This document shows positions 10,318-38,090 of a stretch of DNA of 64,000 bases, in pieces. Below the pieces are notes generated by a model that searched no databases, was not told the DNA's origin, and saw only the letters and a program-made list of their open reading frames with translations. Source of the DNA: a virus; IMG/VR virus record IMGVR_UViG_3300025012_000042, positions 32,001-96,000 of that record; one strand, written 5' to 3'. Numbering within the stretch: position 1 is the stretch's first letter; each line of letters opens with the position of its first letter. A program made the position numbers and the translations under genes.

Positions 10318-10386
10318 TTATTAAATAAATATGGAGAGATTGAAATACATCTCTCCTACCTTCGCAGAAAGGAGTAACAAAACAAA

Positions 10387-19948: not shown

Positions 19949-20371
19949 ATGTATACATATCTTGCTGGAGCATTAACCGTACATCATAGAAACAATGAAT
20001 TCTATAAGGCTACAGATTGGAGGGATAAATTAGGTGCTTGGGCCTATGAAAATTCAGTAAAAGTATTTAATCCTTGTATTAATTTTCTAAGAGAAATTAA
20101 TCATACATACGATCCTAAAATTGTGGTTGACCAAAACAATTACTATATTAATAAATGTGACATCTGTATTGTGTGTCTAGATGCTATAGATTATAGCCCT
20201 GGTACTATCTTTGAACTAACTAGATTTAGAGAACTAGGAAAGCCTGTCATTGCCTTTGGAGTTAAACATTGGAGCCCTCATATCAATAGTTGTATTTCAA
20301 ATCAATGTGAGACACTTGATGACGCTATTGAACTAATTGAAAATATGTTTGATCAGGGTAGTTGGGATTAA
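19949..20371 (+). CDS. Nucleoside 2-deoxyribosyltransferase-like protein
   Basis: YLAG, VFNP, SPGTIFEL, GKPVI. Confidence 0.75.
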   Translation: MYTYLAGALTVHHRNNEFYKATDWRDKLGAWAYENSVKVFNPCINFLREINHTYDPKIVVDQNNYYINKCDICIVCLDAIDYSPGTIFELTRFRELGKPVIAFGVKHWSPHINSCISNQCETLDDAIELIENMFDQGSWD

Positions 20372-21410: not shown

Positions 21411-22946
21411 ATGTTAATTAGTAAAACAGTAATAATTAAATGGCATAATAAGACTAAAAAATGGTATGAGAATAAAGGTTACATATATACTCACAATGGT
21501 GACGAATTTGAAGTTAAAGTGGAAGATTTACAAGATGGATCTCACGCATTGGTAGATGTGCAATGTGACGAATGTGGAGAAATATTAAAGGGAAAGAAAT
21601 GGCAAAGTTACAAAAGACACGTGAAAGAAGATGGTAAATATTATTGTAGTCCATGTGCATCACGATTATATGGGGGAGAAATAACCAGGAAAATAAAACT
21701 GTCAAAAAGTAAATCATTTAAACAATGGTGCTACTTGAATCTTTCAAAAGAATTAGCAATATGGACGTTATCTAGATGGGATTATGAATTAAATATCGAT
21801 AAAGATGGTAACGTAATATTGCCTGATGATGTAAGTTACGGTTCTGACAAAGGGTATTGGTTTAAATGTCTTGATCGTCCTGAACATGGATCAGAATTAA
21901 AGAGCATTCATAGTTTTACAAATGGTCGAGAAAAAAGTATTAATTGCATTAAATGCAATTCAATTTCAATTACACATCCATTGGCTGTTAAATATTTGGC
22001 GAATCCAGAAGACGCATTAAAATATTCTCATAGTTCAATGGTTGAAGTTATTACAAAATGCCCAGAATGTGGTCATGAAAAATCAATGGATATTAACCGT
22101 TTAATAAATAAGGGGTTTAGTTGTTCTGTTTGCTCATCTGGGTATTACCCAGAAAAATTTGTATTTAACATGTTAAAACAATTAAATACAAATTTTCAAA
22201 CACAATTATCTAAAAAAACATTTAAATGGTGCGATAAATATAAATATGACAACTACATAAATAAAATAAATTGTATTATAGAAACTCACGGGATTCAACA
22301 CTATGAAGATTCTACTGGTAATTGGATGAAATTGTGTGAAGTCCAAAAAAATGACAGGAATAAAGAGGAATTGGCTAAAAACAACGATATTGAAAATTAC
22401 ATTGTAATTGATTGTCGTAAGTCAGATATGGAATGGATTAAAAAAAGTATTATGAATTCTGAATTACCCAAGTTGTTAGATTTTAAAGATGATGATGTAA
22501 ATTGGCTAGAATGTCATGAGTATGGTTGTAAAAGCTCTGTAAAATTAGTTTGTATTGAGTGGCATGGCGAAGTTAATAATATTTTAAATATAGAAAATAA
22601 ATTAAAAATAAGTAGAAGTGCGGTAATAAATTACTTGAAACAAGGAACTAAACTAGGATGGTGTATACCTCCCTACAATCCCAAGCAAGAACAAGAAAAA
22701 AGAATTGAATTAATGAAAAAGAAAATTAGTAAAAAGGTAATATGCTTAACTACAAAGGAGATATTTAATAGTATATCGGAAGCGACAATAAAAAATAATT
22801 TACGCAATAGTAGTGGTATATCTCAATGCTGTTTAAACAAAAGGAAATCATCTGGAAAACATTTAGAAACAAATGAACCGTTAAGATGGATGTATCATGA
22901 TGAGTATTTAGAAACACAAAATCAAGAACTTCTCCCATTACAATAA
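21411..22946 (+). CDS. Free-standing Zn-ribbon/Vsr-like (DUF559-type) putative homing endonuclease with NUMOD1-like tail
   Basis: VKVEDL..S..VQCDECG N-terminus, Zn ribbons, YDNYI..IIETHGIQHY, KKVICLTTKEIFNSISEA. Confidence 0.7.
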   Translation: MLISKTVIIKWHNKTKKWYENKGYIYTHNGDEFEVKVEDLQDGSHALVDVQCDECGEILKGKKWQSYKRHVKEDGKYYCSPCASRLYGGEITRKIKLSKSKSFKQWCYLNLSKELAIWTLSRWDYELNIDKDGNVILPDDVSYGSDKGYWFKCLDRPEHGSELKSIHSFTNGREKSINCIKCNSISITHPLAVKYLANPEDALKYSHSSMVEVITKCPECGHEKSMDINRLINKGFSCSVCSSGYYPEKFVFNMLKQLNTNFQTQLSKKTFKWCDKYKYDNYINKINCIIETHGIQHYEDSTGNWMKLCEVQKNDRNKEELAKNNDIENYIVIDCRKSDMEWIKKSIMNSELPKLLDFKDDDVNWLECHEYGCKSSVKLVCIEWHGEVNNILNIENKLKISRSAVINYLKQGTKLGWCIPPYNPKQEQEKRIELMKKKISKKVICLTTKEIFNSISEATIKNNLRNSSGISQCCLNKRKSSGKHLETNEPLRWMYHDEYLETQNQELLPLQ

Positions 22947-23659
22947 TGATAATTAAAGTAAGCACTTTCTCCGGAAACAAAATCTCTAAGTATTTTCTTT
23001 ACAAAACCAAAAGGATTCTTAATATGGAATTTTGCATTGAATAATGTATCTAAAGCACTTTTTAATTGATCTGCATTAGCATTGACCTCTCTTAATATTT
23101 TAGTTACAGTAATTGCAAAATCTGAATCTGGGTCTATCCGAGAATCTCCAAGAGTTTTTATGATAGACCAATCATTTTCTTGATTCCAAAATTCTTCTTT
23201 TACAGGTTCATTTTCTGATTTAACCATACATACATCTTTAAATATTGTTGTATTAGGTGTAATGATAGGGACATCTAGGGAAACTTCTTGGACATCTTGT
23301 CTTTTTTTATCCACAGGTTTAGAGGGGATAGGAACACCTAATAATTTATACAAAACATCTAAATCAATTCTATAGGATTTTCCATGATACCAATCTTTAG
23401 ATTCAAATTGTTTAGATATTAAAACTTTCTTATTCTCTAAATCTTTAATTGCTCTTTGAATTGTCTTAGTAGATTTGTTAAGTTCTAAGGCCCACTGATC
23501 TACTGTCTTATAAACCCATAAGAAACCATCTCTATACTTGGTTGCTCTATTCATCCAATACTTCAAACGCGACAATAATTCTGCTTGGGTCTGCCCAAAA
23601 ACATTAACAACAGTAGGTTGAACAACAATTGGTAATTCATTTTCTAAAATAAGATCCAT
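22922..23659 (-). CDS. Plasmid/phage replication initiator (N-terminal wHTH)
   Basis: LLSRLKYW..DGFLWVYKTVDQWALEL..STKTIQRAIKDLE; adjacent to DnaA-box cluster and ParMR. Confidence 0.75.
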   Translation of the reverse strand: MDLILENELPIVVQPTVVNVFGQTQAELLSRLKYWMNRATKYRDGFLWVYKTVDQWALELNKSTKTIQRAIKDLENKKVLISKQFESKDWYHGKSYRIDLDVLYKLLGVPIPSKPVDKKRQDVQEVSLDVPIITPNTTIFKDVCMVKSENEPVKEEFWNQENDWSIIKTLGDSRIDPDSDFAITVTKILREVNANADQLKSALDTLFNAKFHIKNPFGFVKKILRDFVSGESAYFNYHYCNGRSS

Positions 23660-23744
23660 CTGATTAAAACCTTCTTTCAGCATTTTTCGAATAGCAATGC
23701 TGAAGACTGTTTACAAATTTTTAAAATCATGCTAAAATGACTTA

Positions 23745-23822
23745 AAGAATTTAATACGAGTCTTCGTGGTCTCCTACTAGATGTTGTGTCGGCAAAACTT
23801 AGCATCTAATAGGAGATTTTTC
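23745..23822 (+). ncRNA. Putative antisense RNA I against the rep leader
   Basis: Promoter TTTACA(23710)-17-TAAAAT; long hairpin 23770-23817 with loop GTCGGCAAAAC followed by a T run. Confidence 0.55.
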
Positions 23823-23968
23823 ATTACCTATTCAATTTGATTAATATTAACTCAATAAAAAAGTTAGTAGCACGTACATCTCTGCACCAACTACTAACTT
23901 TGAAATCCTTAATCTAATTTATTATCCAAAGACTTGATTTTCTCACAGTCTTTGTTTATAATAATCTC

Positions 23969-24046
23969 AAGAACTTAAAGCTTAATGTTGGTTCAGAACA
24001 TTTTGCTAGAAAACACTTGATCTTTGCAAGAGGTCAGGTGTTTTTG
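23969..24046 (+). ncRNA. Putative antisense RNA II in the rep leader
   Basis: Promoter TTGATT(23934)-17-TATAAT; hairpin AATGTT/AACATT; terminator AAACACTTGATC..GGTCAGGTGTTTTT. Confidence 0.45.
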
Positions 24047-24090
24047 AATTTATTGAGTTAATTTGATTTTTGATTTGTTAGAGTTATATA

Positions 24091-24209
24091 TTCGACAGGT
24101 TGATACAATTCTCCTTCTAAGAAGAAAAATTATCCACAGGTAATAGTATATATCATAATTTCCTTTGTGGATAGATAGTCTTCGACAAAATTTATCCACA
24201 TGTTGATAA
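24091..24209. promoter_or_regulatory. Putative origin: DnaA boxes interleaved with Spo0A boxes
   Basis: TTATCCACA 24130 and 24192, TGTGGATAG 24166, TGTTGATAA 24201; TTCGACA (0A box) 24091 and 24181. Confidence 0.7.
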
Positions 24210-24237
24210 GTGTTCAGGTCGGACAATAAAACAAAAA

Positions 24238-24281
24238 ATAAGCCACACTCAGATACAATTAAGTATTCTGGTGTGGCTTAT
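24238..24281 (-). terminator. Intrinsic terminator
   Basis: ATAAGCCACAC...GTGTGGCTTAT hairpin with A-tract on its left. Confidence 0.6.
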
Positions 24282-24283
24282 AA

Positions 24284-24583
24284 CTATTTCCTATTAGATT
24301 CAATCATATCTGCTAAAAGTTGCACTCTTTTACTTGCTTCTTTCTTTCCTATACTCTGTTCCCATTCATCATAGGTAGTATTATCTAAATCTAATCCCAT
24401 TATTTTTCTAAACATTTCATGGAGACATTCTGTTAATAAACCACTAACATCTCGATCTGTTTTTTCGGCTACTTCAAACAATACCTTCATTTCTAAACTA
24501 TCAGCAGATAACATAAATTCAGGAAAATCATTGTTTTCGCAATGTACAGGTATGAATTTATACGGTCTACTTTTTAAATCCAC
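24284..24583 (-). CDS. Hypothetical protein
   Basis: ORF with AAGGAG RBS. Confidence 0.55.
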   Translation of the reverse strand: MDLKSRPYKFIPVHCENNDFPEFMLSADSLEMKVLFEVAEKTDRDVSGLLTECLHEMFRKIMGLDLDNTTYDEWEQSIGKKEASKRVQLLADMIESNRK

Positions 24584-24644
24584 TTACTTCAACTCCTTTA
24601 TATAAAATATATTAGCATTGAATATCCTTAAAGTCCACATGCTT

Positions 24645-25466
24645 TCACCTAACATTCACTGGCAACCATATTTTCTCCTTAACCTCTATTCTTTCAATTT
24701 CTCTTTTCATCTCATTAATCCTATTATCGCATTCATCTTTCATTTCTTGTCTCATTACCCTTAATTCCAATACATGACTTTCTCTCAATTCACTAATTTC
24801 CTTAATTCTATCTTGTTTTAACTCAACTAATTGTCCTTCTAAAAACACCGATCTATTCTCTGATTCTTTTAATTGAAGTTGCAAATATTTATTAGAGTCT
24901 TCCATCTCGCCGATAGAAAGTTCCAATTCATCTACCGACCCAATTCTTTTCTTCATCTCATCATTTTCTAATCTTAATGTTTCTATTAAATAATTTGAGT
25001 TATTATGTCCGGCCTCTAATTCAATATTCCTTTTGGATAAAGTCTCCGACTTATCTTCTGCTTCTTTTTTAGCTTTATCAGAATCTTTTTTGCTATTTTC
25101 AGCAATATCAATTCTTTCTCTTAGAGAATCTAAAGTGGTTTTAAAATCATTTGTTAATGTTTGAACTGTCTCCATATGGAATCTTTTCTGATCAGCTTCA
25201 CTCCTGGTAATCTCAGTAAACATTTGAACTATGCGTTCTACATGCTCTTTCATTTTCAACATGTTTGGAGTTATAAGTTCGGATATTCCACCCGATTCTG
25301 ATTCTAATTGATCTTTCTTTAATCTGATTACATCAAGCAATAAGTCTTTTGATGTTAAACCTGTGCGGGTTTGAAGTGAGGCCCATTCATTTTTACCATC
25401 TTCGTTGTCTAATCTGATTGAAAGGGAGGATGGAGATGGTTTTCTAGTATCTTCTGATTCATTCAT
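24645..25466 (-). CDS. Coiled-coil protein with short N-terminal putative DNA-binding region (KfrA-like architecture)
   Basis: SLSIRLD N-terminus then long heptad region; own sigmaA promoter 25565-25593; plasmid context. Confidence 0.5.
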   Translation of the reverse strand: MNESEDTRKPSPSSLSIRLDNEDGKNEWASLQTRTGLTSKDLLLDVIRLKKDQLESESGGISELITPNMLKMKEHVERIVQMFTEITRSEADQKRFHMETVQTLTNDFKTTLDSLRERIDIAENSKKDSDKAKKEAEDKSETLSKRNIELEAGHNNSNYLIETLRLENDEMKKRIGSVDELELSIGEMEDSNKYLQLQLKESENRSVFLEGQLVELKQDRIKEISELRESHVLELRVMRQEMKDECDNRINEMKREIERIEVKEKIWLPVNVR

Positions 25467-25564
25467 GATTTGGTGCCTCCTTTGAGATTATGATAATGTA
25501 TACATTTTAGGTAGTTATAATGGTACGTATACACATGTATACACGTAAACTTTTGTATACATTG

Positions 25565-25678
25565 ATTATAGCATAAAATGGTAAGGTGAGCAAGATGTAT
25601 AAAAATGTGTTGCAAAGTATGGGGTATGACTATATAATATCCATAAAGGTAAATACCCCATACTTTATAGTGGGGTAT
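25565..25678. promoter_or_regulatory. Divergent promoters with ParR operator/parC repeats
   Basis: TTGCAA-17-TATAAT (+) and TTGCTC-17-TATAAT (-); perfect inverted repeat AAAGTATGGGGTAT (25614)/ATACCCCATACTTT (25653) plus TGGGGTAT at 25671. Confidence 0.65.
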
Positions 25679-25698
25679 AATATGAAGGAGGAATATTT

Positions 25699-26550
25699 AT
25701 GGCAATTCAGATCATTCCAATCGACTGTGGACGCAACACTGTAAAGTTATTAAACAATCAATCATTTAGATCTGTGGTTGGAGATTGGCATCATAGGGAA
25801 ATATCTGATAATGAAGAATATGAAGTAATTATCAACGACAAAGAAAAACATTTTGTAGGACAATTGGCACTCGATGAGTCGTTTGCCCCAATCGAGATGA
25901 GTACAACATCAAAGATTCATGAACAGACAAGAGTGCTTTTTTTAACTGGGGTCGGCCTATCCTTAGAGGAAGATGACAGTGATTTATATATTTGCACAGG
26001 TGTACCAGTTGATCAGTTCAATGCCACAACAAAATCTGCATTGGAAAATTTATTATTTGGCAAATACGATATTCAAATTAATGGGGAACATAAAAAATTC
26101 TGTATAAACAATCTAAATATTATACCTGAATCTGTTGCCAGCTTTCAATATGCATTATCGAAAGATGAAAATTTATCAATTGGTAAGAAAAGAATAATTG
26201 ACTTAGGAAGTTTAACCGTGAATTATAGTTCTATGAACGGTAGTAAGTTTGTCACAAGAGATTCTGGAACACTGGCTTTCGGTTCCATTAAACTAAAAGG
26301 GAATCAAATTGATAATTCTCAATATGTTGGAAAGATTGTAGCTGAACTTAGTCAGAGATTCACAGACTACGAAATCTCTGATCGAGTTTTATTAACTGGT
26401 GGAGGAGCATTGCAATTTGGTGATTTATTTAAGAAATATTATCCTAATTGCTCAGTTTTAGATAATTGTGTCTATGCTAATGTAGAAGGTTATCACAGGA
26501 TGGGCGTGAAAAAATGGGCAAAAGCACAGGCGAACTCACAGGTCGAGTAA
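25699..26550 (+). CDS. parM: ParM/StbA actin-like segregation ATPase
   Basis: IDCGRNTVK, TGVP, IPES, IDLGSLT, LTGGGA. Confidence 0.9.
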   Translation: MAIQIIPIDCGRNTVKLLNNQSFRSVVGDWHHREISDNEEYEVIINDKEKHFVGQLALDESFAPIEMSTTSKIHEQTRVLFLTGVGLSLEEDDSDLYICTGVPVDQFNATTKSALENLLFGKYDIQINGEHKKFCINNLNIIPESVASFQYALSKDENLSIGKKRIIDLGSLTVNYSSMNGSKFVTRDSGTLAFGSIKLKGNQIDNSQYVGKIVAELSQRFTDYEISDRVLLTGGGALQFGDLFKKYYPNCSVLDNCVYANVEGYHRMGVKKWAKAQANSQVE

Positions 26551-26765
26551 AAAGAAAAGGTGTTTATTTTAATTTAGACGATGAAGATGAATTATTACTT
26601 TATGAAAAGGCAAACGAGATTAGAAATTTTAGTAAATGGGTTAAGAAGCAATTAGTTAATGATGGGGTCGTAGTTAAAGAGGGAATAAAAGAGACTGTAG
26701 TAGAGCATATTAAGGTTGAAAGAAGGAGAGTAGAAAAGGATGAACTTGACGATATGATGATTTAA
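26514..26765 (+). CDS. ParR-like adaptor
   Basis: Overlaps parM; KGVYFNL..LYE..NFSKWVKKQL RHH-like region; acidic tail. Confidence 0.7.
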   Translation: MGKSTGELTGRVKRKGVYFNLDDEDELLLYEKANEIRNFSKWVKKQLVNDGVVVKEGIKETVVEHIKVERRRVEKDELDDMMI

Positions 26766-26797
26766 AGACATAACTGTAATAGTTGTGTCTTCTTTTT
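26765..26797 (+). terminator. Intrinsic terminator of parMR
   Basis: AAGACATAACT-GTAAT-AGTTGTGTCTT then CTTTTT. Confidence 0.65.
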
Positions 26798-27021
26798 GTT
26801 TAGATAGTATGTAGGAATATAAGGGGTAATGTTTGTGGTAATGGGATAGTATGTAGGAAAATTTATAGGAGAGTATGGGGTATGAAATTAGTCCTGAGAA
26901 ATCAGGGCTTATTCTTTTCCCATTTATTACATTTACTAAAAGTGTAATATTGTACAATCCCTACTCAATAAAGATTAAACATATCATCATTAATCACAAT
27001 CTATCAAAGGAGGATGCAACA

Positions 27022-27282
27022 TTGATTACCGATAAACTCAATAAATCAGAGATTAAAGTTCTTCAAGTTCTTCAAGAATCAAATATCACTAATGATATGA
27101 ATGCTATGAAAATATCAACATTGTCAGAGAAAACTGGATTAAGTTATTTCATTGTAAGAAATATTATCAAGAGTTTTTATATTGCTGGTATCTGTACAAA
27201 AGGACGGAAAGAGGGGAATGGAGAGACATTTTATTTAAGTGAATTATATCAAGAAATTAAGGGAGGAATTATTAATGAGTAA
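27022..27282 (+). CDS. Winged-helix DNA-binding protein
   Basis: AAGGAGG plus TTG; ISTLSEKTGLSYFIVRNIIKSF HTH and wing. Confidence 0.65.
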   Translation: MITDKLNKSEIKVLQVLQESNITNDMNAMKISTLSEKTGLSYFIVRNIIKSFYIAGICTKGRKEGNGETFYLSELYQEIKGGIINE

Positions 27283-27577
27283 ATTATACACAATCCTAAA
27301 ACCAAGTAATTCTATCTATAAGAAAACACAAAAGCGACTTCAAACTGTAACTTTTAATTGTGAAATATGTGCAATTAAATATCCTACGTTTACCGAAAAA
27401 TCTATTATCACAAAAGATATTGATTCTGAACTTATTCATGTTTTAAATTATTGTCCTAAATGTTTACAGAGATTCCCCATTCAATTTAATTTAAATGATA
27501 ATAGTGTTTCTATAGCATGGCCTAGTTGGGATGGTAAGGATGAAGATGGAATTTATCCGAGGAGAATGGAGGGTTAG
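27275..27577 (+). CDS. Zn-ribbon hypothetical protein
   Basis: CEIC...CPKC. Confidence 0.5.
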   Translation: MSKLYTILKPSNSIYKKTQKRLQTVTFNCEICAIKYPTFTEKSIITKDIDSELIHVLNYCPKCLQRFPIQFNLNDNSVSIAWPSWDGKDEDGIYPRRMEG

Positions 27578-27602
27578 AGGTTAGATTAAGGGAGGAATCA
27601 TA

Positions 27603-27890
27603 ATGCAAGCATATTTTACTAAATTTGATAATGATTCTAATTGGGTTAAGGGTGAAGTCGGTAGATTTAGATTTGATGCTAAACTATACAACACTCCATC
27701 TAGATTAGGTATTGATGGTGGAAGGGTTAGTGCGTTAGCAATATTTGAAGGAGAACAGTTTAATCATAATAATTGCGAAGTTCATTATAATCGTGGATGG
27801 GACATTGAACCAAATGAGGATATGATGGATTATTTTGATGCTGTAATGGATTTATTGGAGAATAGTGAGGAAAGGGATTTGGATGAGTAA
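27603..27890 (+). CDS. Conserved Firmicutes mobile-element protein
   Basis: AKLY..PS..GIDGGRVS.L...YNRGWDIEP. Confidence 0.55.
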   Translation: MQAYFTKFDNDSNWVKGEVGRFRFDAKLYNTPSRLGIDGGRVSALAIFEGEQFNHNNCEVHYNRGWDIEPNEDMMDYFDAVMDLLENSEERDLDE

Positions 27891-28125
27891 TGATATTTAC
27901 CTTAAAGTATTGGACTTAGCAGGTTACGAATTAGAATATGGTATTTCATTAGAGACTCAAGTTAGGAATTTGTTTATTGATATGGTAGATGGTGGAATGT
28001 ATTCAGATGTAAGGAATAAAGAGGAAGTAGATGATTTTATTGAGGAAATTGGAATTGATGGAGTGGTTAAGATGTTGGTTAGAAGTATGGAGGGTTATAG
28101 GGAGTTTAAGGTTAAGTATGGTTAA
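27883..28125 (+). CDS. Hypothetical protein
   Basis: Translationally coupled ORF. Confidence 0.5.
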   Translation: MSNDIYLKVLDLAGYELEYGISLETQVRNLFIDMVDGGMYSDVRNKEEVDDFIEEIGIDGVVKMLVRSMEGYREFKVKYG

Positions 28126-28139
28126 GGAGTTAAATTAGT

Positions 28140-28730
28140 ATGAAAAAAACAAAAGGAAAACTAATTCCCAAACTAAGCAAAAAACTATTATTTTCGCTTT
28201 TATTATTAACTTTATTGTCAATACCTCATCCTGCCTCAGCTAAAGGAGAATTGACCACAGAAGAAGCAAAAAGCATTTTAAACATTATTATTAATAAAAC
28301 TTATATATTGCTTACTTCTTCCTCTAATTATATCTATCCAGTAGATGGAATAATCTCAAGTCCTTATGGCACAAGAGAGTCTTCATTAGATGGATTTCAT
28401 TATGGAATTGATATTGCGGTAGTAGAAAATACCCCTGTTCATGCTTCAAATTTTGGCATAGTAATTAAAGCAGAATTTAATGAAATGATTGGAAATGTTG
28501 TGTATATCAATCATTCTGATGGAAAACAGACTGTGTACGCTCACAACAATAAATTATTAGTCAATGTTGGAGATAAAGTAAATCAAAATGATGTAATTGC
28601 TTTTTCTGGAAATACAGGATTACTGTCCAGAGGACCACATGTACATTTTGAAATTCGTACTAATAATGGAACTAATTCATTAAATCCAATGAATTATTTA
28701 CCTGCAAAACAAAATAAACCCCTCAAATGA
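28140..28730 (+). CDS. Secreted M23 peptidase (cell-wall hydrolase)
   Basis: Signal peptide; HYGIDIA, YAHN, GPHVHFEI. Confidence 0.9.
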   Translation: MKKTKGKLIPKLSKKLLFSLLLLTLLSIPHPASAKGELTTEEAKSILNIIINKTYILLTSSSNYIYPVDGIISSPYGTRESSLDGFHYGIDIAVVENTPVHASNFGIVIKAEFNEMIGNVVYINHSDGKQTVYAHNNKLLVNVGDKVNQNDVIAFSGNTGLLSRGPHVHFEIRTNNGTNSLNPMNYLPAKQNKPLK

Positions 28731-28756
28731 GGGGATGAAATGGAGCATATGATTAA

Positions 28757-28858
28757 TTATTGAACTAATTTTCCTAATTGCTGTACTATATCAACTAATT
28801 CGTATGCTCCATATCCCATTAATCCTACTCCAATTACTGTTCCAAATATTAAAAACAT
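28757..28858 (-). CDS. 33-aa membrane peptide
   Basis: AAGGAGTG RBS; MFLIFGTVIGVGLMGYGAYELVDIVQQLGKLVQ. Confidence 0.55.
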   Translation of the reverse strand: MFLIFGTVIGVGLMGYGAYELVDIVQQLGKLVQ

Positions 28859-29103
28859 AAATTTTCACTCCTTTAAATCATATTTTAATGACTATATTGT
28901 TACCAAACTATATGTCGAATATACATGAATTAATGTAAATTTTAAGACAAGAACCCTATATTAACCCCCTATGTTAAGTATAGTACACTCTAAATCCTAC
29001 AGCCCTTTAATACCAATGGTCTTAGAATTGAAAATGTGGGGTCTTCTTATATAAGGAGGCAAGATTTGCCGACTGTTTTAAATTTCAAAGGAGGTTGTTT
29101 ACA

Positions 29104-29355
29104 TTGAATGAATTTTTAAGTTGGTCAACAAAGATTTGTTTGGCTATGACTGCTCTTGGTGGAGGATTGGCTATGCTCATGATAGTATGGTCTGGGATTA
29201 TGGATATAATTGGAAATGGGCAATGGAAGGCACAAGCCAAGGAATTAAAGGAATCGGTAATTAGAGGATGTATTACTATAATCGTTGGGCCTTGGGTTAT
29301 AAAAATTCTTTGGACTATACTCAAAGGAATTTTTCCAACACTTCCTACATTTTAA
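29104..29355 (+). CDS. VirB2/TrbC pilin-like protein
   Basis: Two hydrophobic helices around AQAKELK..I.G; first gene of T4SS-like cluster. Confidence 0.6.
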   Translation: MNEFLSWSTKICLAMTALGGGLAMLMIVWSGIMDIIGNGQWKAQAKELKESVIRGCITIIVGPWVIKILWTILKGIFPTLPTF

Positions 29356-29384
29356 TTATTGCAATTCTAAAGGGGATGATCATA

Positions 29385-30419
29385 ATGCTTACAGTTGGAG
29401 AAGTTGGAGACGCAATTATTGATTTATTTATTAAACCACCATCTCCTGAAACTGTTGATAAAGTAAATGGGGCATTATTTGATGTCCCTACTCCAGAAAC
29501 GATAGAGAGTGTCAATAATGTTTTATTTAATGCGCCTACACCACATGATATTTCTACGGTTAATGGGAGATTAGAACATTTTATTACTGATTCATTAGTA
29601 CAAAACTTTGCACAATTATTTCTTCATACACCTAATGTACTATTAGAAAATCCAACAATATTAGTTTTACACTCATTCTTTTTAAAAATAATTATTGCTT
29701 TTTCATTCGCAGGAATAGTATATTTTGGAATTATGCAAGTCATGAACAAAAGTAGTAAATATCAGACAAATGAATATATTGTAAAAATAGCTCAATCGAT
29801 GGTAATTATAAATATAGTAATTATAGCACTACCAACACTAATAGAAACAACAAACAAATTAACTATAGCAATTCTTTCAATAGGTGGAACAGAAGCAGAG
29901 ATGATAAAGGCTCTAACTCCTCAGTACGGTTTAGGCTTAATCATATTCACACTAATATTTGCTTTAATACTAATCAATCTAATATGGTATTACTTTATGA
30001 GAATGATTTCTATTATGTTTTTAGTTGCTACAGCACCCATATTCTTTTTTCTATGGTTATTTCCTAAACATCAAAATATGAGACAAATATGGATTGATGA
30101 GCTATTGGATAACTTACAAGCACCTATTATTCATGCGATTATTATGGTCATTTGGTTAGGTTTTGAGTCATCTATTTCAAAATCAAATCACGGAGGACTT
30201 TATCACATTATGCTTTGTATAGCAGCAGGTTCATTTATGATTCAAGCACCTAGTTATGTGCAACAATGGATTAGTTATGGACACCAAGCACCTACTCCTA
30301 TTCAAATGTTCAAAGAAATTAAGTATGGATTAAGTCCTAGAAAACTTATCGGTTATGGAGGATTTGGAAGAATGGGAGGAAACATGTTTAGAGGAAGAGG
30401 AACTACAAGAAGGAGGTAA
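29385..30419 (+). CDS. VirB6/TrbL-like polytopic membrane protein
   Basis: 5-6 TM segments; MRMISIMFLVATAPIFF..LFP..W pattern. Confidence 0.65.
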   Translation: MLTVGEVGDAIIDLFIKPPSPETVDKVNGALFDVPTPETIESVNNVLFNAPTPHDISTVNGRLEHFITDSLVQNFAQLFLHTPNVLLENPTILVLHSFFLKIIIAFSFAGIVYFGIMQVMNKSSKYQTNEYIVKIAQSMVIINIVIIALPTLIETTNKLTIAILSIGGTEAEMIKALTPQYGLGLIIFTLIFALILINLIWYYFMRMISIMFLVATAPIFFFLWLFPKHQNMRQIWIDELLDNLQAPIIHAIIMVIWLGFESSISKSNHGGLYHIMLCIAAGSFMIQAPSYVQQWISYGHQAPTPIQMFKEIKYGLSPRKLIGYGGFGRMGGNMFRGRGTTRRR

Positions 30420-30423
30420 TTTA

Positions 30424-30771
30424 ATGTTTAATAATGAGATGTTTGAAACTAATCAAATCATTGAAATGAAGGATGAAATATTCTATGGACTTACAGGCAA
30501 ACAAACAATTTATTTAATATCTGGGATAGTTTTAAGTTTATCTATATTTAATACTGCATTACCTATTATTGCAAAACTATTCATTCTACCAAATATCGGT
30601 ATTCCTACTGCAATTCTAGTTAAAACTGATATTGATCAAGGAATAGTTTCTTTCTTCAAATTTAAGTGGAGAGGGGTGACAAAACAAAATGTTACAATAC
30701 AATCTTTACCCAAAAGCAAATTATCTTTTAGCAACAAAAGAAGAACAAACACTACTCCGATCCAAGTTTAA
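30424..30771 (+). CDS. PrgI/VirB3-like membrane protein
   Basis: EMKDEIFYGLTGKQTIY plus 2 TMs upstream of VirB4. Confidence 0.7.
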   Translation: MFNNEMFETNQIIEMKDEIFYGLTGKQTIYLISGIVLSLSIFNTALPIIAKLFILPNIGIPTAILVKTDIDQGIVSFFKFKWRGVTKQNVTIQSLPKSKLSFSNKRRTNTTPIQV

Positions 30772-32194
30772 ATATCTATTAAATTCTCTAAATGAACCGT
30801 CTAGAATCATTTGTAGAACTGACTCAAATAAATTGAATAAAGACACACAAATCAATGAATCAATTTATCATTTAATAACTAATGCTGATATTTATGAGAA
30901 TTTAAGTAATTCTGGAATAGATTATACTCAAAATAAATGTCCTACATCAAATATTCAAGTAAAAGAACATCGAAAATATATTGCTATTACTGAAAACAAT
31001 GAAAAATATTTTGCTAAATCAATCAAGGTTATCCAATTTCCACAAATGCTTTCTACTGGATTCATAAACAACTTAATGATTTCTGACACTGAAATTGCCC
31101 TTACAATCTTTCCATTGCCACAAGAAGAGGCTGTGAAGACAGTAAAAAAGAGAATTGATACTAATGAAGCAAATGTAAATTGGAAGGTCGTAAAGAACCC
31201 TAATCAAGAGTTTTATGTAGAAGATGAAATTGTACTAAAACTTCAAAAGACTATGGTTGATCTTATGGGTAATGAAGAAAAACTTTGTATGGTTGGATTA
31301 TATATCTTAATTAAAGGACAAACACTTGAACAATTGGAAACAAAAGCAAAACAAATATCAATGCTTTTGGATGGAATGCAAATTAGGTTTAAATTCGCTA
31401 ATTATGAACATTTTAATTGTTTTAAGAATTTTAGAGCATATAAAGAAATTGATTATGTAAATGAGTTAAAAGTATTTTTGACAAGTGTAATTAGTAATTT
31501 TTATCCATTTGTTAGATATGTATCAGGGGATGGAGTTATTATCGGATATGATTATCAAAATTATCAATTGATTAAAATTAATTTTTCAGAACTCTTCAAT
31601 CTGTCATGGTTTATTTTCGGAATTTCAGGAAGTGGAAAGTCATTTGCTGTAAAGAGCATTGTAAAGAAAATATCTAGTCATAAGAAGATTTATATTCTTG
31701 ATATTACTGGTGAATATGCCAAACTAAAATCAAAGAATATTATCATAATATCTAAAGATTTTGAGAAATTTCTATTATACACTGATTTTAAAGATTGCAT
31801 GATTATAATTGATGAAGCATGGGATATTTTAAAAACTGATAAAGTTATTAAAAGAGTAGTAGCAATAGCGAAAGGATATAGAAAGAGGGGAGTAGGTGTT
31901 TTAGTCTGCACTCAAAACATTGCTGATACAAGTAAAGAGGATATTGAATTAATTATTAAAAACTGTGCTAATACTTTAATTCTTCATTTGACTTCACTAG
32001 AACTTCAACATATTAGCGAATACATGAATATACCTCATCATATTATTGATTATCTTTCTAGGATTGAAAAAGGACAAGGGTGGATGACCATAGGAACAAA
32101 GCAATATGCTTTTAGACCAATATTTAGTGATGAAGATTACTTGTTATTCAATACTAATTATGAGGAAATGAAAGGGGTTGGTTATAATGGGTGA
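30689..32194 (+). CDS. Compact VirB4-like ATPase
   Basis: Walker A GISGSGKS, Walker B IIIDEAW, GYRKRG, CTQN, KGQG. Confidence 0.8.
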   Translation: MLQYNLYPKANYLLATKEEQTLLRSKFKYLLNSLNEPSRIICRTDSNKLNKDTQINESIYHLITNADIYENLSNSGIDYTQNKCPTSNIQVKEHRKYIAITENNEKYFAKSIKVIQFPQMLSTGFINNLMISDTEIALTIFPLPQEEAVKTVKKRIDTNEANVNWKVVKNPNQEFYVEDEIVLKLQKTMVDLMGNEEKLCMVGLYILIKGQTLEQLETKAKQISMLLDGMQIRFKFANYEHFNCFKNFRAYKEIDYVNELKVFLTSVISNFYPFVRYVSGDGVIIGYDYQNYQLIKINFSELFNLSWFIFGISGSGKSFAVKSIVKKISSHKKIYILDITGEYAKLKSKNIIIISKDFEKFLLYTDFKDCMIIIDEAWDILKTDKVIKRVVAIAKGYRKRGVGVLVCTQNIADTSKEDIELIIKNCANTLILHLTSLELQHISEYMNIPHHIIDYLSRIEKGQGWMTIGTKQYAFRPIFSDEDYLLFNTNYEEMKGVGYNG

Positions 32195-33884
32195 GAAACT
32201 TAGCAAGATTAAAGATTTGGCAATTAAATCAGGTAAATATTCTGCTTTATATAGTGGAAAATTTATTTTAGGTGGATTAGGTTATGCTGTTCAAATTGCT
32301 TCAAACGGAATATTAGGAATGAGTATTCCAGATTATAAATTGCCTAATTTGAAGTTTGGTGATGATAAAACTTCATTAGGAGATAGAGTAGTTTTAACTC
32401 CTAGCAAATTTCTCCTTAAAGGAAATGGTATAGTGGTTGGTAAGGATTTTAATACAAAGAATGTAATTAGTTATCCAATAGATCATTTTGACGATCTTTG
32501 TAAACATTCTATTTATGTTGGTGCTCCTGGAAGTGGCAAATCAAATTTAGCAGAAAATGTAGCCATTCAAATATCTAAAATTAATAATTTACAAAACTTT
32601 AATACAGCAGGATTTTGTGTTATAGATGTTGCAGATGGGGCCTTGATTGATAATGTTTTATTGTCTATTCCAGAAAATAGATTAGATGATGTAGTTTTAT
32701 TAGACTTCTCTAATAAAGACTTTCTACCAGGAATTAATCTCTTAGAATTTGATGAAAAAGTAGAGAAACAATTTCCACACTTTATTCATGCTGAAATAAT
32801 CTCATTCTTTAAAAAGCGATTTGGTGAACAAATTGGTTTTGCAAGTGAGGATCTTTTATCAAACTCACTCAATGCTATTCTGAAGCAAACAGATTATCCA
32901 AAAACACTTTTAGGAATTATTAAAATGTTAACTGAGGTAGATTATAGAGAACAAATATTAAAATCATTAAGAAAAAACAAAAGAAATGCTTCTGTTGTTA
33001 GATATTGGGATAGATTTGAAGCACAATCACCATCTGTAAAAAGAGATATCGTCAAACCTCTGTTAAACAAGGTTGGCAATCTTACTAATAACGATTATTT
33101 AAAATCTATTATATGTCAAAACAAATCTACCATTGACTTTAGAACAATAATGGATGAAGGCAAAATTCTATTGATTAAAGCTCCTAAAGTTGCAGTTGGT
33201 AAAGTTAATATAGAAATATTAATACCACTAATCCTTTCAAAATTTTGGATATCTGCATTATCAAGATTTGATATTACTGACAAAAACCAAAGAAGACCTT
33301 TTATGCTTTTTCTTGACGAGCCACAAATGTATTTGTCAAATGAAGCAGGAATTGAAGAAATGCTAACAGAATCAAGAAAATACCGACTATGCTCACATTT
33401 TTTCTTTCAGTCTCCAGAACAAACTCAACTTCAATCTGTCATTAGAATGATGTTAGAAGTGCATCCTCAGATTATATCATTTGCTATAGGTAGGGGTGGC
33501 GCACAGACGTTGTTTAAAGAATTTGAAACAGGTGATGAAGAAAAAGATATGTCCATAAGATATACAATTCTTAATCTACCTAAATATCATGCTTTGTGTA
33601 GATTCTTATATAAGAATGAAAAGAGTGTATCTATTATTAAATGTGATCCTCCCACTAAACCTTTGCGAAAAAAAGTACCCGATATTATTACTGAAAATAG
33701 TCAAATGTATTTACGTTCTGTTGATGAAATTATGGAAGAAATTCTTGAATCAGATTATATCCCAGAACCAGATTTTAGTTTAATAGAGGTGAACAATAAT
33801 GAACAGCAAAGATTTAATGTTGAAGAAGTTGACTTTAGGAACAAAGTTTCAAGATTTAACAAACCGAGATTTAGAGATAATTAG
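32187..33884 (+). CDS. Type IV coupling protein-like (VirD4/TrwB) ATPase
   Basis: KHSIYVGAPGSGKS, PGINLLE, STIDFRTIMDEGKILL, LFLDEPQ, ESRKY. Confidence 0.8.
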   Translation: MGEKLSKIKDLAIKSGKYSALYSGKFILGGLGYAVQIASNGILGMSIPDYKLPNLKFGDDKTSLGDRVVLTPSKFLLKGNGIVVGKDFNTKNVISYPIDHFDDLCKHSIYVGAPGSGKSNLAENVAIQISKINNLQNFNTAGFCVIDVADGALIDNVLLSIPENRLDDVVLLDFSNKDFLPGINLLEFDEKVEKQFPHFIHAEIISFFKKRFGEQIGFASEDLLSNSLNAILKQTDYPKTLLGIIKMLTEVDYREQILKSLRKNKRNASVVRYWDRFEAQSPSVKRDIVKPLLNKVGNLTNNDYLKSIICQNKSTIDFRTIMDEGKILLIKAPKVAVGKVNIEILIPLILSKFWISALSRFDITDKNQRRPFMLFLDEPQMYLSNEAGIEEMLTESRKYRLCSHFFFQSPEQTQLQSVIRMMLEVHPQIISFAIGRGGAQTLFKEFETGDEEKDMSIRYTILNLPKYHALCRFLYKNEKSVSIIKCDPPTKPLRKKVPDIITENSQMYLRSVDEIMEEILESDYIPEPDFSLIEVNNNEQQRFNVEEVDFRNKVSRFNKPRFRDN

Positions 33885-34563
33885 AGTTGTTAGAGATTTA
33901 CAAATTGTTTCAAGGAGCCAACTTCAAATTATGTTCTTTCCTACAAAGCAAAGTTTAACTATCTGTAATAGAAGATTAGCCAAAATAGAGAAATTAGGAT
34001 TTATTAATAGAACTCCTATTACTTTGAACGGTGAATCTTTAATTACTGCTGGAAAATTACTTTGTCTAGCAGGAGGTACTTATATGTCTAAATTGCCATC
34101 TGATTACACTCATCAGTTATTGATGAATGAAATTTATGCTTTGTTATTTAGAGAGCAGAATTTGAATCGAATTATCATTAAACAATACAAACCTGAATTT
34201 GTTTATAAATTTAGGGACAAGGATGAAGGTAAGCAATATATTTTAAGGTCTGATATTTTAACTGTATTAGAGAAAAATGGAATGGATACAACTCTATTAT
34301 TTGAGATAGATGCAGGAACAGAAACAAAGAAACAATTAAGAGAAAAGATTAATATTTATGAAAAAGTATCTATGAAAGTAAAGGGATTTCCTCAACTGTT
34401 TTGGTTGGCAAATGACAAGGGATTCAGAAAATTAATTAGTTTGGACAAGACTGTTAATATAGCAAAAGTAGAAGAATTGAGAGAAAATTTTTATTTATGG
34501 ACAAGGTATCCTGATATGAAAAGGACAAGATTAATTCCTGATATTGTTGTTTGGAAAATTTAG
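33799..34563 (+). CDS. Replication-relaxation (Replic_Relax) family protein
   Basis: wHTH LTNRDLEII..QL..CNRRLAKI; HQL; LRSD; FEIDAGTE; KINIY. Confidence 0.8.
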   Translation: MNSKDLMLKKLTLGTKFQDLTNRDLEIIRVVRDLQIVSRSQLQIMFFPTKQSLTICNRRLAKIEKLGFINRTPITLNGESLITAGKLLCLAGGTYMSKLPSDYTHQLLMNEIYALLFREQNLNRIIIKQYKPEFVYKFRDKDEGKQYILRSDILTVLEKNGMDTTLLFEIDAGTETKKQLREKINIYEKVSMKVKGFPQLFWLANDKGFRKLISLDKTVNIAKVEELRENFYLWTRYPDMKRTRLIPDIVVWKI

Positions 34564-34588: not shown

Positions 34589-34753
34589 ATGGGATTATTA
34601 GGTAATCTGATTAGTAGTTTTAGCAAACCAGAAATTGATGTTGATGAATTAGTAGATTTTATAGCTGAAGGGACACATATTGACAGAGGAATTATTGAAA
34701 TTATTTTAGAGGCAGAAGATATTTATTTGAGAGAAAAAGGGATTATATATTAG
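34589..34753 (+). CDS. Small acidic protein (54 aa)
   Basis: ORF followed by terminator GAGTGATAGGATGTCACTC-TTTT. Confidence 0.5.
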   Translation: MGLLGNLISSFSKPEIDVDELVDFIAEGTHIDRGIIEIILEAEDIYLREKGIIY

Positions 34754-34883
34754 AGGAGTGGGAGTGATAGGATGTCACTCTTTTCTTTTTAGGATTATTT
34801 TCAATAAATTTTATAAAAACTAGCATTAAATATTTGCAATCTCATAAAATATCATATATTATGTGTGAAAGGGTTGATTTTAG

Positions 34884-36584
34884 ATGATTTTTAAATTTGA
34901 TAAAGTTGGAAATATGGAAGATGTTGGAGATGTTGAAGATACTAAATTGGAAGGAGATATTGAAATGGGTAGGAAAAGTAATAAGGATAAGGATAGGTTT
35001 TCTCGAATGGATGTTGGTGTTGTTAATTCGGTGAAAGAAGAGGTTTTAGGGATGGTAAATGAAACTAAAAGTCAGGTGGCAGTTGGATTTAATGAAATTC
35101 TAGATGATGAGGATATGGTTCAACAACATGAGATGGAATTGGTTAAAGAAATGGAATCTGAGAGTGATAAAATTTGGGATAGAGGGAGCAGAGATGGGGT
35201 TGTTGGGGATAGTGTAGGTGATGATGGTGATGGTGAGAGTGATAAATCTGTAATGTCTGATGAAGAATTGAAGGAGAAAATGAGGGAAAGAAATATGGGT
35301 AATGCTAGTAGTTCTGGTGGGATGCCTGCGTTTGGTAGTTTGAGTGAGAGGGTTAAGATGGAGGATGAAAACAATATCAATGATTTTAGTGATGAAGATG
35401 AAACCAATGAACAAAAAAATGAAGCTCAAAGAAAAAAGGATGAATTGGCTAAAAAAAGAGAAGCAAATAAATTGAAGAAAGAATTTAAAGATAGAGAAAA
35501 ACAATTAGCAATGAAAAAAGAAAGTAACGATAAATCATGGTCGTTTGATAATATATCGGTTGTTATGAGAGATGGTATTCCTTATAAGTTTAATTTATCA
35601 TTATCTGCTTTACAATTGGCAGAAATGTATGGAGTGACAGGACAAATTTATTATCAAAAAAGCATTCAAAGGGGTAGTAAAGTTAGTAAAACCAAAGGGG
35701 AAATTCCTCTTATTAATGTGAAGCACAGTAAGGATATTTTGAATTCTCTTTTAGAAAGTGAAAATGTTGATGGAGGAACCATATATTTAAATTATGCAAA
35801 AGAATACTCAACTCCATTACAGTTTAATTCATCTGATAACACTTTATCTGGTCAATTTCCCTTATCCATAAATGACGGAGGTCACAGACTGGAATCCTGT
35901 TTGCTCTGGTATAATAAATTTCGAAAGGATATGGACTCAATTAAAGATCCTAATGATTTTTATTTTTCGGTAAGTATCTTAAATTTAGATCATGAACAGT
36001 CAGAAAATATATTTGTCGAATTAAATTCTCTCGGACTTCCTGTTTCTAAAACTGCTGTAGCTTATCATGATGTGCGAAACATAAATAACGTTATTGCCAA
36101 AAAAGTTATGAATAATTCATTTCTTCGTGGACGTATTGAATTATTTTCAAATAGTTTGAAAAAAACAAGCAATTGCGTAATGACATTTAATACCTTATTA
36201 AAAGGTTGTTCTATGATGTCTCCTGAAACACCTAGTCAAGTAGAAGAAGCAGGGAATTTCTTGTGTTCTTATTTTAATGAGATTATAGAATTATTTCCTA
36301 AAATATATGGCAATGTCTCATCAGAAACAAGACAAATTGAAAAGGCCAATACGTTTATTGGCGAAGTAATGTTCATCCACGCATTGTTCGGTCTTGCAGT
36401 TGAATTACAATTTGTTGCTGATTGGAAAGATAAACTTAAAAAATTGACACAACCAAGTAGTTTTTTGAGTCGAGATAATGACTTATGGATAAGAAATATT
36501 ACTCGTAATGAAGGTAAATTAATCAATACTAGTAAAACTCAAGATTTTGTGAAGGATCAGTTATTGGCGAAGGTTATGGGTTAG
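34884..36584 (+). CDS. DGQHR/DndB-like (ParB/Srx fold) protein with disordered acidic N-terminus
   Basis: IQRG, LSINDGGHRL, IFVELNS..PVSK; own promoter TTGCAA-17-TATTAT at 34834. Confidence 0.7.
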   Translation: MIFKFDKVGNMEDVGDVEDTKLEGDIEMGRKSNKDKDRFSRMDVGVVNSVKEEVLGMVNETKSQVAVGFNEILDDEDMVQQHEMELVKEMESESDKIWDRGSRDGVVGDSVGDDGDGESDKSVMSDEELKEKMRERNMGNASSSGGMPAFGSLSERVKMEDENNINDFSDEDETNEQKNEAQRKKDELAKKREANKLKKEFKDREKQLAMKKESNDKSWSFDNISVVMRDGIPYKFNLSLSALQLAEMYGVTGQIYYQKSIQRGSKVSKTKGEIPLINVKHSKDILNSLLESENVDGGTIYLNYAKEYSTPLQFNSSDNTLSGQFPLSINDGGHRLESCLLWYNKFRKDMDSIKDPNDFYFSVSILNLDHEQSENIFVELNSLGLPVSKTAVAYHDVRNINNVIAKKVMNNSFLRGRIELFSNSLKKTSNCVMTFNTLLKGCSMMSPETPSQVEEAGNFLCSYFNEIIELFPKIYGNVSSETRQIEKANTFIGEVMFIHALFGLAVELQFVADWKDKLKKLTQPSSFLSRDNDLWIRNITRNEGKLINTSKTQDFVKDQLLAKVMG

Positions 36585-36600: not shown

Positions 36601-36638
36601 AAAATAGAGGTATCTACAATTAAAGTAGATACCTCTAT
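36601..36638. terminator. Terminator at the convergence of the two genome arms
   Basis: ATAGAGGTATCTAC-AATTAAA-GTAGATACCTCTAT. Confidence 0.75.
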
Positions 36639-37971: not shown

Positions 37972-38090
37972 AAATACACCTATCCTTTCTTTTTGCCACA
38001 AGAAACAAATGGGAATAGACCTTATATCGGCAAAATATAAAGTCTATTAATTACACTTATTAATTTTCGAACATCAATAAGAAACCATGA
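37972..38090 (-). ncRNA. Structured leader RNA, copy A
   Basis: AUGGUU-P2(UUCGAA)-GUAAUU-P3-CCCAUUU; loop UUUUGCC pairs with GGCAAAA next to the SD. Confidence 0.65.

Follow-up and report, generated by a model that had tools for sequence, protein, structure and literature searches.

In reviews, phages and conjugative elements are kept apart as two different vehicles of horizontal transfer (PMC12282955). The conjugative type IV secretion systems (T4SSs) of monoderm bacteria, such as those of the CD1110, CD1112 and CD1115 types, combine a wall hydrolase with a VirB6-like and a PrgI/VirB3-like protein, the ATPase VirB4, a coupling protein and a relaxase, and the systems of pLS20, ICEBs1 and pCW3 (Tcp) are built from the same component classes. 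Here, we describe a set of genes with comparable composition in a tailed phage. The set is located in a stretch of 64,000 nucleotides (the window), which covers positions 32001-96000 of a single contig of 112,820 bp (IMG/VR virus record IMGVR_UViG_3300025012_000042), and it consists of an operon at 29.1-34.8 kb and a preceding gene for an M23 endopeptidase at 28.1 kb. From the sequences of the window and its relatives, we are highly confident that both together constitute a functional, stripped-down T4SS module of the monoderm type, which has long been an integral part of a lineage of uncultured large siphophages with genomes of about 180-230 kb and a low-GC, probably clostridial host. Modules of this kind are found repeatedly in phages of endospore-forming Bacillota, and by sequence comparison the present one is the most complete known. 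It is thus a recurring phage feature instead of a one-off plasmid capture.

The resemblance to the systems of monoderm bacteria includes the local gene order VirB6, PrgI, VirB4, which is the same in the plasmid pCDC3875 of C. botulinum. There are also pronounced differences, since the phage set contains no VirB8-like (TcpC/PrgL-type) protein, its VirB4 comprises 501 residues compared to about 800, its hydrolase is of the M23 type and not of the SLT or NlpC/P60 type, its coupling ATPase is TrwB-like (PF10412), with no clear membrane anchor and no detected CD1115-type relationship, and the entire module resides in a tailed phage. A second group of related systems is found in integrative and mobilisable elements (IMEs), where the relaxases termed MOB_C in CONJscan, which are described by the profile PF13814, pair with VirD4-type coupling proteins, and where the coupling ATPase is followed by the relaxase in the same pairing and order as in the window (PMC5357655). 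However, IMEs integrate by a serine recombinase and borrow the channel of a helper, whereas the pair described here is accompanied by its own VirB2/3/4/6-like set in a phage.

In phages, only fragments of such a system have been noted. The 2025 re-annotation of Bacillus phage G recognised two ATPases alone, gp155 and gp156, which were named TraC-like and TraD-like and reported as missing from the virion proteome, so that they are not structural proteins (PMC12484599). In siphophages of B. pumilus, TrbC/VirB2, Replic_Relax and FtsK/SpoIIIE-like genes occur together and were read as relics of plasmid maintenance (PMC9658697). In our literature search, no paper described a Bacillus or Clostridium phage with a complete operon of the T4SS type that includes a relaxase. 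The phage G ATPases and scattered 'FtsK-like' and Replic_Relax genes were already known.

Components of the T4SS-like operon

The genes of the operon are co-oriented, overlap by 17-86 nt and share one terminator at 34760-34782, and the whole region is of uniform GC content (Table 1). The original prediction had proposed a tightly coupled cluster of M23, pilin-, VirB6-, PrgI-, VirB4- and coupling protein-like genes and a Replic_Relax gene, with intact Walker motifs and a VirB4 of only about 500 residues. Profile matches and topology support the cluster as real, co-oriented and translationally coupled, the estimated length of VirB4 is accurate, and inspection of the sequences finds Walker A and B intact in both ATPases, with a Walker A of GISGSGKS in the VirB4-like protein.

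This VirB4-like ATPase is recognised as VirB4 at the superfamily level only, with a match to TIGR00929 (3.6e-7) and, in the PDB, to the VirB4 structure 4ag5 (7e-6), compared to values of 0.18-0.32 for HerA. On its sequence, it is a divergent, shortened relative of the VirB4 of the CD1110 family and not a member of that equivalog. An identity as a HerA/FtsK-type protein of packaging or defence was considered and is ruled out by sequence, as both profile and PDB searches favour VirB4. Among the predicted membrane components, the VirB6/TrbL-like protein, whose real start is probably near 29379, has no direct Pfam match, and its relationship is reflected in remote homologues identified by exhaustive HMMER searches, 20 of 49 of which carry PF19597 (TrbL_4) and three PF04610 (TrbL/VirB6). 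It is homologous to gp153 of phage G, which itself matches TrbL_4 at 1.8e-11. The VirB2-like gene might start at 29104 and shows a ratio of nonsynonymous to synonymous substitutions (dN/dS) of 0.04-0.16, whereas the start of the PrgI-like protein that is conserved in an alignment of relatives is M24, at position 30424. The M23 protein, whose gene is separated from the operon by a spacer of 365 bp and shows a dN/dS of 0.14-0.21, is a candidate wall hydrolase of the VirB1 type that would be secreted or anchored.

The second ATPase belongs to the family of type IV coupling proteins (VirD4/TrwB) as judged from its homologues, more than 1,400 of which carry PF10412 (TrwB_AAD_bind), PF02534 and PF12696, including homologues with E values of 1e-46 to 1e-37. 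We also compared its AlphaFold model (pLDDT 77) to solved structures by Foldseek and structural alignment, which yielded Z-scores of 27.2 for DndH-C, 26.3 for the C-terminal domain of VirB4, 24.5 for HerA, 24.4 for TrwB (376 residues, the longest alignment) and 23.6 for DotL. The modelled fold places the protein in the clade of VirB4, VirD4 and HerA without splitting that clade, and DndH and HerA are not separable. Because DndH-C, VirB4, HerA and TrwB lie within about 3 Z, the assignment as a coupling protein rests on the sequence homologues. PDB sequence searches with this ATPase or the relaxase returned nothing significant. The grouping of the two ATPases, for which the original prediction had named HerA/FtsK families as a refuting outcome, was thus supported by sequence in both cases, with the VirB4-like protein joining VirB4 instead of HerA or FtsK and the second joining the coupling proteins, whereas the fold of the latter does not set it apart from DndH and HerA.

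Directly behind the operon terminator, at 34884-36584(+), the window encodes a protein of 566 residues with a C-terminal DndB-like domain (PF14072, 8.6e-21), which may act in DNA modification or counter-defence. This gene invariably follows the module directly and forms a transcription unit of its own.

The proximity of this gene and the rank of DndH-C as top structural match of the coupling ATPase are both compatible with a DndH/HerA-related set of ATPases in defence or counter-defence, one of several alternatives in which the module would serve another cargo or role. These include the secretion of effectors or toxins against neighbours, as protein secretion by T4SSs is known, the exclusion of superinfecting phages at the membrane, and a DNA import resembling that of the archaeal Ced system, for which there are weak matches to CedB and CedD (1.7e-13 and 3.4e-4). 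We consider this group of alternatives very unlikely, since a relaxase gene that is translationally coupled to that of the coupling ATPase suggests DNA as the substrate, since the sequences of the ATPases group with VirB4 and coupling proteins and not with HerA, and since the DndB-like gene, behind its terminator, evolves differently and fast, with 25-38% identity between relatives and a dN/dS of 0.3-0.5.

The candidate relaxase at the end of the operon matches PF13814 with 38.3 bits compared to a cut-off of 25.3, and its presumed catalytic residues (H, D and ExD..TE) are conserved out to gp146 of phage G and gp90 of phage CP-51, with a dN/dS of 0.02-0.15 for the gene. Its AlphaFold model (pLDDT 51) was not used. 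The corresponding PHROG, phrog_9381, carries the label 'replication initiation by nicking', as is gp146 of phage G in RefSeq, which is in line with an accessory function in replication and segregation inside one cell. The Replic_Relax protein would in this case be a nicking initiator, the coupling-type ATPase would pump or anchor phage DNA in cooperation with an actin-like system, and the membrane proteins would act as tethers only. The location of the module beside Rep, origin and actin-like genes in several phages would agree with such a function, and Replic_Relax and FtsK-like genes have been treated as companions of segregation systems (PMC9658697). We nevertheless regard it as quite unlikely, because it leaves a secreted wall hydrolase and a VirB2-, VirB3-, VirB6- and VirB4-like set, encoded in one operon under purifying selection, without explanation, because VirB4 is a hallmark of T4SSs that span the envelope, and because the phage already owns replication genes that include a helicase beside DnaE and primase.

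Table 1. Features of the T4SS-like module and of the upstream cassette, with positions in the window.
Feature	Position	Strand	Evidence and remarks
Rep-like replication initiator (DnaD/O-like), 253 aa	22922..23683	-	phrog_6493 7.9e-18; phrog_428, phrog_9773 ~5e-10
Origin-like non-coding region	23684..24283	.	four DnaA boxes; two perfect TGTCGAA; putative origin
273-aa coiled-coil protein	24645..25466	-	weak SMC-like match only; conserved with Rep cassette
parC-like repeats and parM promoter	25495..25680	.	GTATACA motifs, ~10-bp spacing; putative centromere
ParM-type actin-like segregation protein (ALP)	25699..26550	+	PF17989 ALP_N 4.5e-21; phrog_691 partition protein 5e-47
Candidate ParR, 83 aa, ribbon-helix-helix-like by eye	26514..26765	+	position and sequence; no Pfam match
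Four small soluble open reading frames (135, 112, 95, 86 aa)	26875..28125	+	lead into M23 gene; partly conserved in relatives
M23 (LytM) peptidoglycan endopeptidase	28140..28730	+	PF01551 3.2e-29; N-terminal hydrophobic signal/anchor
33-aa hydrophobic peptide gene	28757..28858	-	conserved in all four lineages; transcribed away from T4SS-like operon
Conserved non-coding block and operon promoter	28905..29060	.	alignment of relatives; block 28905-29010; candidate regulatory site or oriT
VirB2/T4SS-pilin-like protein with two transmembrane segments, 86 aa	29095..29355	+	PF18895 0.0027 (below cut-off); phrog_3528 2e-6
VirB6/TrbL-like polytopic protein, 383 aa	29268..30419	+	~6 transmembrane segments; NF045890 pLS20_p028 2.7e-4
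PrgI/VirB3-like protein with two transmembrane segments	30355..30771	+	PF12666 2.7e-4 (below cut-off); topology; gene order
Short VirB4-like ATPase, 501 aa	30689..32194	+	NF045971 (CD1110 family) 1.7e-30; NF045975 (Mbov_0397 VirB4) 8.3e-29
TrwB/VirD4-type coupling-protein-like ATPase, 568 aa	32178..33884	+	phrog_5156 2e-72; no Pfam match of its own
Replic_Relax (MOB_C-type, PD-(D/E)XK-like) candidate relaxase/nickase, N-terminal winged helix-turn-helix	33799..34563	+	PF13814 2e-9
Conserved 54-aa open reading frame and operon terminator	34589..34782	+	terminator 34760-34782

Conservation, phage context and the plasmid-like cassette

The module is carried by seven loci in IMG/VR. Its junctions are kept in four independent assemblies from other samples, which include a contig of 139 kb (L004), two genomes of 230 kb (L005/G001) and 227 kb (L009/G002) that are rated complete in IMG/VR, and a further locus (L010), all with the same flanks, a zinc-finger gene upstream and the DndB-like gene downstream. 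The synteny in related phages, which had been proposed as a check, thus argues against a chimera. The identities of the module proteins range from 69% to 99% across relatives and differ gene by gene, and in the comparison with L004 the relaxase is 99% and the coupling ATPase 79% identical, which points to recombination among related phages. Purifying selection acts on every gene of the module, with dN/dS values of 0.02-0.36 at a dS of up to about 1 or more. For a single metagenomic contig with an unusually short VirB4, an artefact would be a natural concern, but the chance that the module is one is practically negligible: an assembly chimera of phage and plasmid is ruled out by the conserved junctions, two of them in genomes rated complete, and a decaying conjugative remnant or recent capture by intact genes throughout, low dN/dS values and uniform GC. 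In viral contigs with distant VirB4 matches (L040-L045) the rest of the module is missing, and for a relative with 48% identity (P0014) no locus was found in IMG/VR.

The contig has a GC content of 29% and no terminal repeats. As predicted, tail, baseplate, endolysin, DnaE and primase genes are found by domain matches on the same contig as the module. The left arm, on the plus strand, encodes a PD-(D/E)XK nuclease, DnaE, a class II ribonucleotide reductase, a TnpB-like protein, a radical-SAM protein, ThyX and a dNMP kinase, and the right arm, on the minus strand, Mom, a GIY-YIG endonuclease, an AEP primase-like protein, Bro-N/RusA, an Amidase_3 endolysin, a BppU-type baseplate protein of 1842 residues, Dit and a tape-measure protein of 1996 residues. 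Virion genes (those for the tape-measure protein, Dit, BppU and endolysin) therefore reside on the same replicon as genes for plasmid-type replication and partition (Rep-like, DnaA boxes, ALP/ParM and parC-like repeats), although the latter cassette varies among relatives. The deposited genomes with the nearest DnaE are a 176-kb gut phage, Geobacillus virus E3, the Lactococcus 949-group, Clostridium phage c-st and the 130-kb plasmid-phages of C. difficile, and the endolysin has relatives in Clostridium, Paenibacillus, Bacillus and Moorella phages. Since both proteins have relatives in such phages, the host is probably a low-GC spore former. The phage-plasmids c-st and those of C. difficile, which are maintained extrachromosomally, resemble the present phage as large low-GC genomes of the siphophage type, whose own DnaE is 37-40% identical, and neither yielded a match to the VirB4-like or the coupling ATPase.

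No integrase was found in the present contig or in its complete relative G001, which also contains no tyrosine or serine recombinase, and no tRNA genes were detected. Pfam scans of ten further open reading frames of the window identified no repressor, and a Megablast search of the region against phage and plasmid collections returned no match. A number of other genes deserve mention. A TnpB/OrfB_IS605-like gene is found within the operon for nucleotide metabolism (window 10876-12309; 2.7e-4), and a transposase (phrog_506, 6e-54) is encoded near the right end of the contig at contig positions 108086-109555(-). A protein of the Mom family is located at 38783-39397(-) of the window (2.6e-41), and DUF488 and a nucleoside 2-deoxyribosyltransferase-like protein are encoded at 14198-14542 and 19949-20371, with ThyX and the ribonucleotide reductase; collectively, this set may hint at a base modification of the phage DNA. 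Two tandem DUF7487 genes at 36647-38001(-) (3e-10 and 1e-17) adjoin a strong bidirectional terminator at 36604-36638, which marks the switch between the arms of the genome.

The Rep, origin and ParMR module that the original prediction had named along with the T4SS-like genes is supported by the match to phrog_6493, the DnaA boxes, PF17989 and the parC-like repeats, with the roles of origin, parC and ParR being putative. The Rep-like gene has no Pfam match. In the origin-like region, four DnaA boxes are concentrated within 80 bp (24130-24209), and perfect boxes of the Spo0A type (TGTCGAA) are located at 24091 and 24181. A perfect inverted repeat of 14 nt overlies the parM promoter, and a terminator (26765-26791) directly follows the candidate parR. 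None of the four small open reading frames between this gene and that of the M23 protein contains a transmembrane segment, and one of them, at 27603-27890, encodes DUF7678 (PF24726, 1.5e-18). L004 keeps the ParM, a Rep with 72% and the coiled-coil protein with 91% identity. In G001, where the Rep cassette is replaced, a divergent actin-like protein of 322 residues (L005:4472-5440; PF17989 1.4e-6) with 22% identity to the ParM of the window is encoded at the same spot, just upstream of the module, with a gene for a protein containing a DnaA_N domain (PF11638, 8e-12) nearby, at L005:1622-2593(-). Judged from these sequences, it is therefore the actin-like segregation gene, and not a particular replicon, whose linkage to the T4SS-like module is conserved.

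Between the M23 gene and the operon, the divergently oriented gene for a hydrophobic peptide is equipped with its own ribosome-binding site, promoter (TCGACA-16-TATAGT) and terminator, and a TGTCGAA box overlaps its -35 element. The adjoining conserved non-coding block contains TGTCGAA at 28913, which is perfect in three of four relatives, and a tandem CCCTAT(A/G)TTAA, with a 23-mer that is unique in the window, and it is followed by a sigma-A-like promoter of the operon at 29028-29055.

Homologous modules in other phages and in plasmids

The best database match of the VirB4-like ATPase is gp155 of phage G, which adjoins gp156, a homologue of the coupling ATPase. The resemblance extends to gp153, the TrbL_4 homologue of the 383-residue membrane protein of the window, to gp150, a T4SS_pilin/TrbC protein, to the Replic_Relax protein gp146 (4e-25), and to a spore-forming host. 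In contrast, the identity to the window proteins is only 23-27%, phage G is a myovirus of 498 kb, its relaxase gene is set apart on the opposite strand, its cluster shows no M23 gene, and its coupling ATPase is with 825 residues larger and contains an extra N-terminal region with a transmembrane segment.

A reduced version of the module is found in other Bacillus phages. In CP-51, the Replic_Relax protein gp90 (1.9e-18) is encoded behind the ATPase gp91, and the actin-like gp96 and the weakly pilin-like gp97 are encoded in front of this ATPase. This region (gp90-gp97), the siphophages of B. pumilus and the phage 0105phi7-2 (gp33) share with the window pilin-like and actin-like genes and a coupling-type ATPase that adjoins Replic_Relax. 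They differ by the absence of VirB4-, VirB6- and VirB3-like genes and by the size of their ATPase of 850-910 residues. The family of the coupling ATPase is contained in 130 phage records, almost all from phages of endospore formers, with 119 of Bacillus, five of Geobacillus, two of Lysinibacillus and one of Brevibacillus phages, which include Herelleviridae of the SPO1 and CP-51 groups and list no phage of a non-sporulating Bacillota.

This near confinement to phages of endospore formers would be expected if the machine moved phage DNA across the septum or the engulfment membranes of a sporulating cell, so that this DNA leaves the doomed mother cell for the forespore, or if it held the DNA at the pole. 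The phage would then be trapped in the spore, and its DNA would be positioned by the actin-like filament. Such a function would accommodate the presence of the ATPase family in SPO1-like phages, the ALP gene next to the module, which the window shares with G001 and CP-51, the wealth of sporulation genes in phage G (PMC12484599), and the link between phage FtsK/SpoIIIE-like genes and sporulation on which reviews have speculated (PMC4113786). It would also fit the location of perfect Spo0A-type boxes, as three of the five TGTCGAA sites in the 64 kb fall in the origin-like region or in the conserved block that precedes the operon. However, the total of five sites compared to 3.6 expected is not an enrichment and their position was singled out post hoc, the host restriction could reflect gene flow among related phages, and there is no gene for a small acid-soluble spore protein in the present contig, in G001 or in G002, and a sigma factor in G002 only. 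Being wholly inferential, we regard a sporulation-linked function as unlikely.

Outside of phages, large plasmids of C. botulinum and C. sporogenes contain members of the coupling-ATPase family next to a TrbC/VirB2 gene. In the C. sporogenes plasmid NZ_CP022406 (L003), such a pair is located at 7583-10383, where the coupling-ATPase homologue is 800 residues long, with no other T4SS gene in the 19 kb covered. The nearest cellular relatives of the ATPase are from Patescibacteria, with 27-35% identity.

A proposed DNA-export machine and its implications

The function that we find most plausible, although we propose it tentatively, is that of a relaxase-primed minimal machine for DNA export which works on the DNA of the phage itself. 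This proposal relies on the component set, since a VirB4 that occurs together with a coupling ATPase, a relaxase and partners resembling VirB3 and VirB6 has, as far as is known, the sole role of a relaxase-primed transfer of DNA across the envelope. In such a process, the MOB_C-like Replic_Relax nuclease would bind and nick its cognate site on circular phage DNA, which could be a plasmid-like form kept by the adjoining cassette of Rep, DnaA boxes and ParMRC. The complex of relaxase and DNA would then be taken up by the TrwB-type coupling ATPase and moved outward through a channel of VirB6/TrbL-, VirB3- and VirB2-like proteins that is powered by the short VirB4-like ATPase, while the M23 endopeptidase would open the wall. 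The outcome would be a virion-free delivery of the phage genome to an adjoining cell as a second, conjugation-like route of spread, which could run along chains of cells or past receptor-based resistance. From its gene content, a virion-independent spread of the phage is possible. Transfer to a neighbouring cell, as suggested by the original prediction, fits a phage in which no integrase was found and which has a plasmid-like cassette, and it fits less well to the SPO1-like carriers of the reduced set, which, with only a coupling protein and a relaxase, would resemble mobilisable elements.

Several observations weigh against this proposal. With respect to the components, the assignments of the VirB2- and VirB3-like proteins are below Pfam cut-offs, even though their membrane topology and gene order fit. 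The VirB4-like ATPase falls outside its equivalog, with 106 bits compared to a cut-off of 325 for NF045971 and a match confined to positions 177-462 of 752. The coupling ATPase has no clear N-terminal membrane anchor, in addition to the described ambiguity of its fold. As the original prediction had already noticed, no VirB8-like (TcpC/PrgL/NTF2-like) component is found in any open reading frame of 26.8-34.8 kb, and the search for an oriT retrieved the conserved non-coding block alone. With respect to the element, the plasmid-like state is deduced from a fragment, as the IMG/VR record is classed as linear with a CheckV completeness of 63%, and on this contig no terminase, portal or capsid genes were found; the complete relatives contain a TerL-like open reading frame. 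Neither of these relatives, G001 and G002, contains a homologue of the Rep of the window, a close ParM or a ParA. When 185,579 species genomes were scanned for proteins closely related to the coupling ATPase, neither a host nor a plasmid copy came to light, and the only matches were those from Patescibacteria and other distant ones at the same level of identity. Finally, the role of gp155 and gp156 in phages has been termed entirely unknown (PMC12484599), and the reduced set of pilin-like protein, ALP, coupling ATPase and Replic_Relax resides in SPO1-like Herelleviridae such as CP-51. As these phages are described as strictly virulent in a subfamily-wide study (PMC4528723), conjugation in the style of plasmids is hard to picture in their case, and in light of the homologous sets in phage G and CP-51 such classical conjugation is neither the only reading nor clearly the best. 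From the original prediction of a conjugative phage-plasmid, we thus retain a T4SS-type module in a tailed phage beside a Rep/ParMRC-like cassette, whereas its classification as a conjugative phage-plasmid is weakened by the incomplete contig, the complete relatives without this Rep, the lack of a host genome in our scan and the recurrence of the module in phage G and CP-51.

A more general proposal can also be made, which we consider doubtful in its entirety. Large phages of endospore formers would own a virion-independent route for their genomes, provided by a relaxase-primed minimal T4SS that exists in a 'self-transmissible' version with VirB4, VirB6, VirB3 and hydrolase, as in the window and phage G, and in a 'mobilisable' version with coupling ATPase and relaxase, as in the SPO1-like phages. 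By this route, phage DNA would reach adjoining cells in a chain, or it would leave the mother cell for the forespore, in coordination with the adjacent actin-like filament and possibly under the control of Spo0A.

Collectively, our analysis describes a module that is real, conserved and experimentally approachable, as cultivable phages such as G, CP-51 and relatives of SPO1 carry homologous sets that open the idea to direct experiment. If true, a tailed phage with a working T4SS for DNA export would blur the division between phages and conjugative elements. It could explain a spread past receptor-based resistance or a persistence via spores, and it would give a function to the unexplained 'FtsK/SpoIIIE-like', 'TraC/TraD-like' and Replic_Relax genes of many Bacillus phages.

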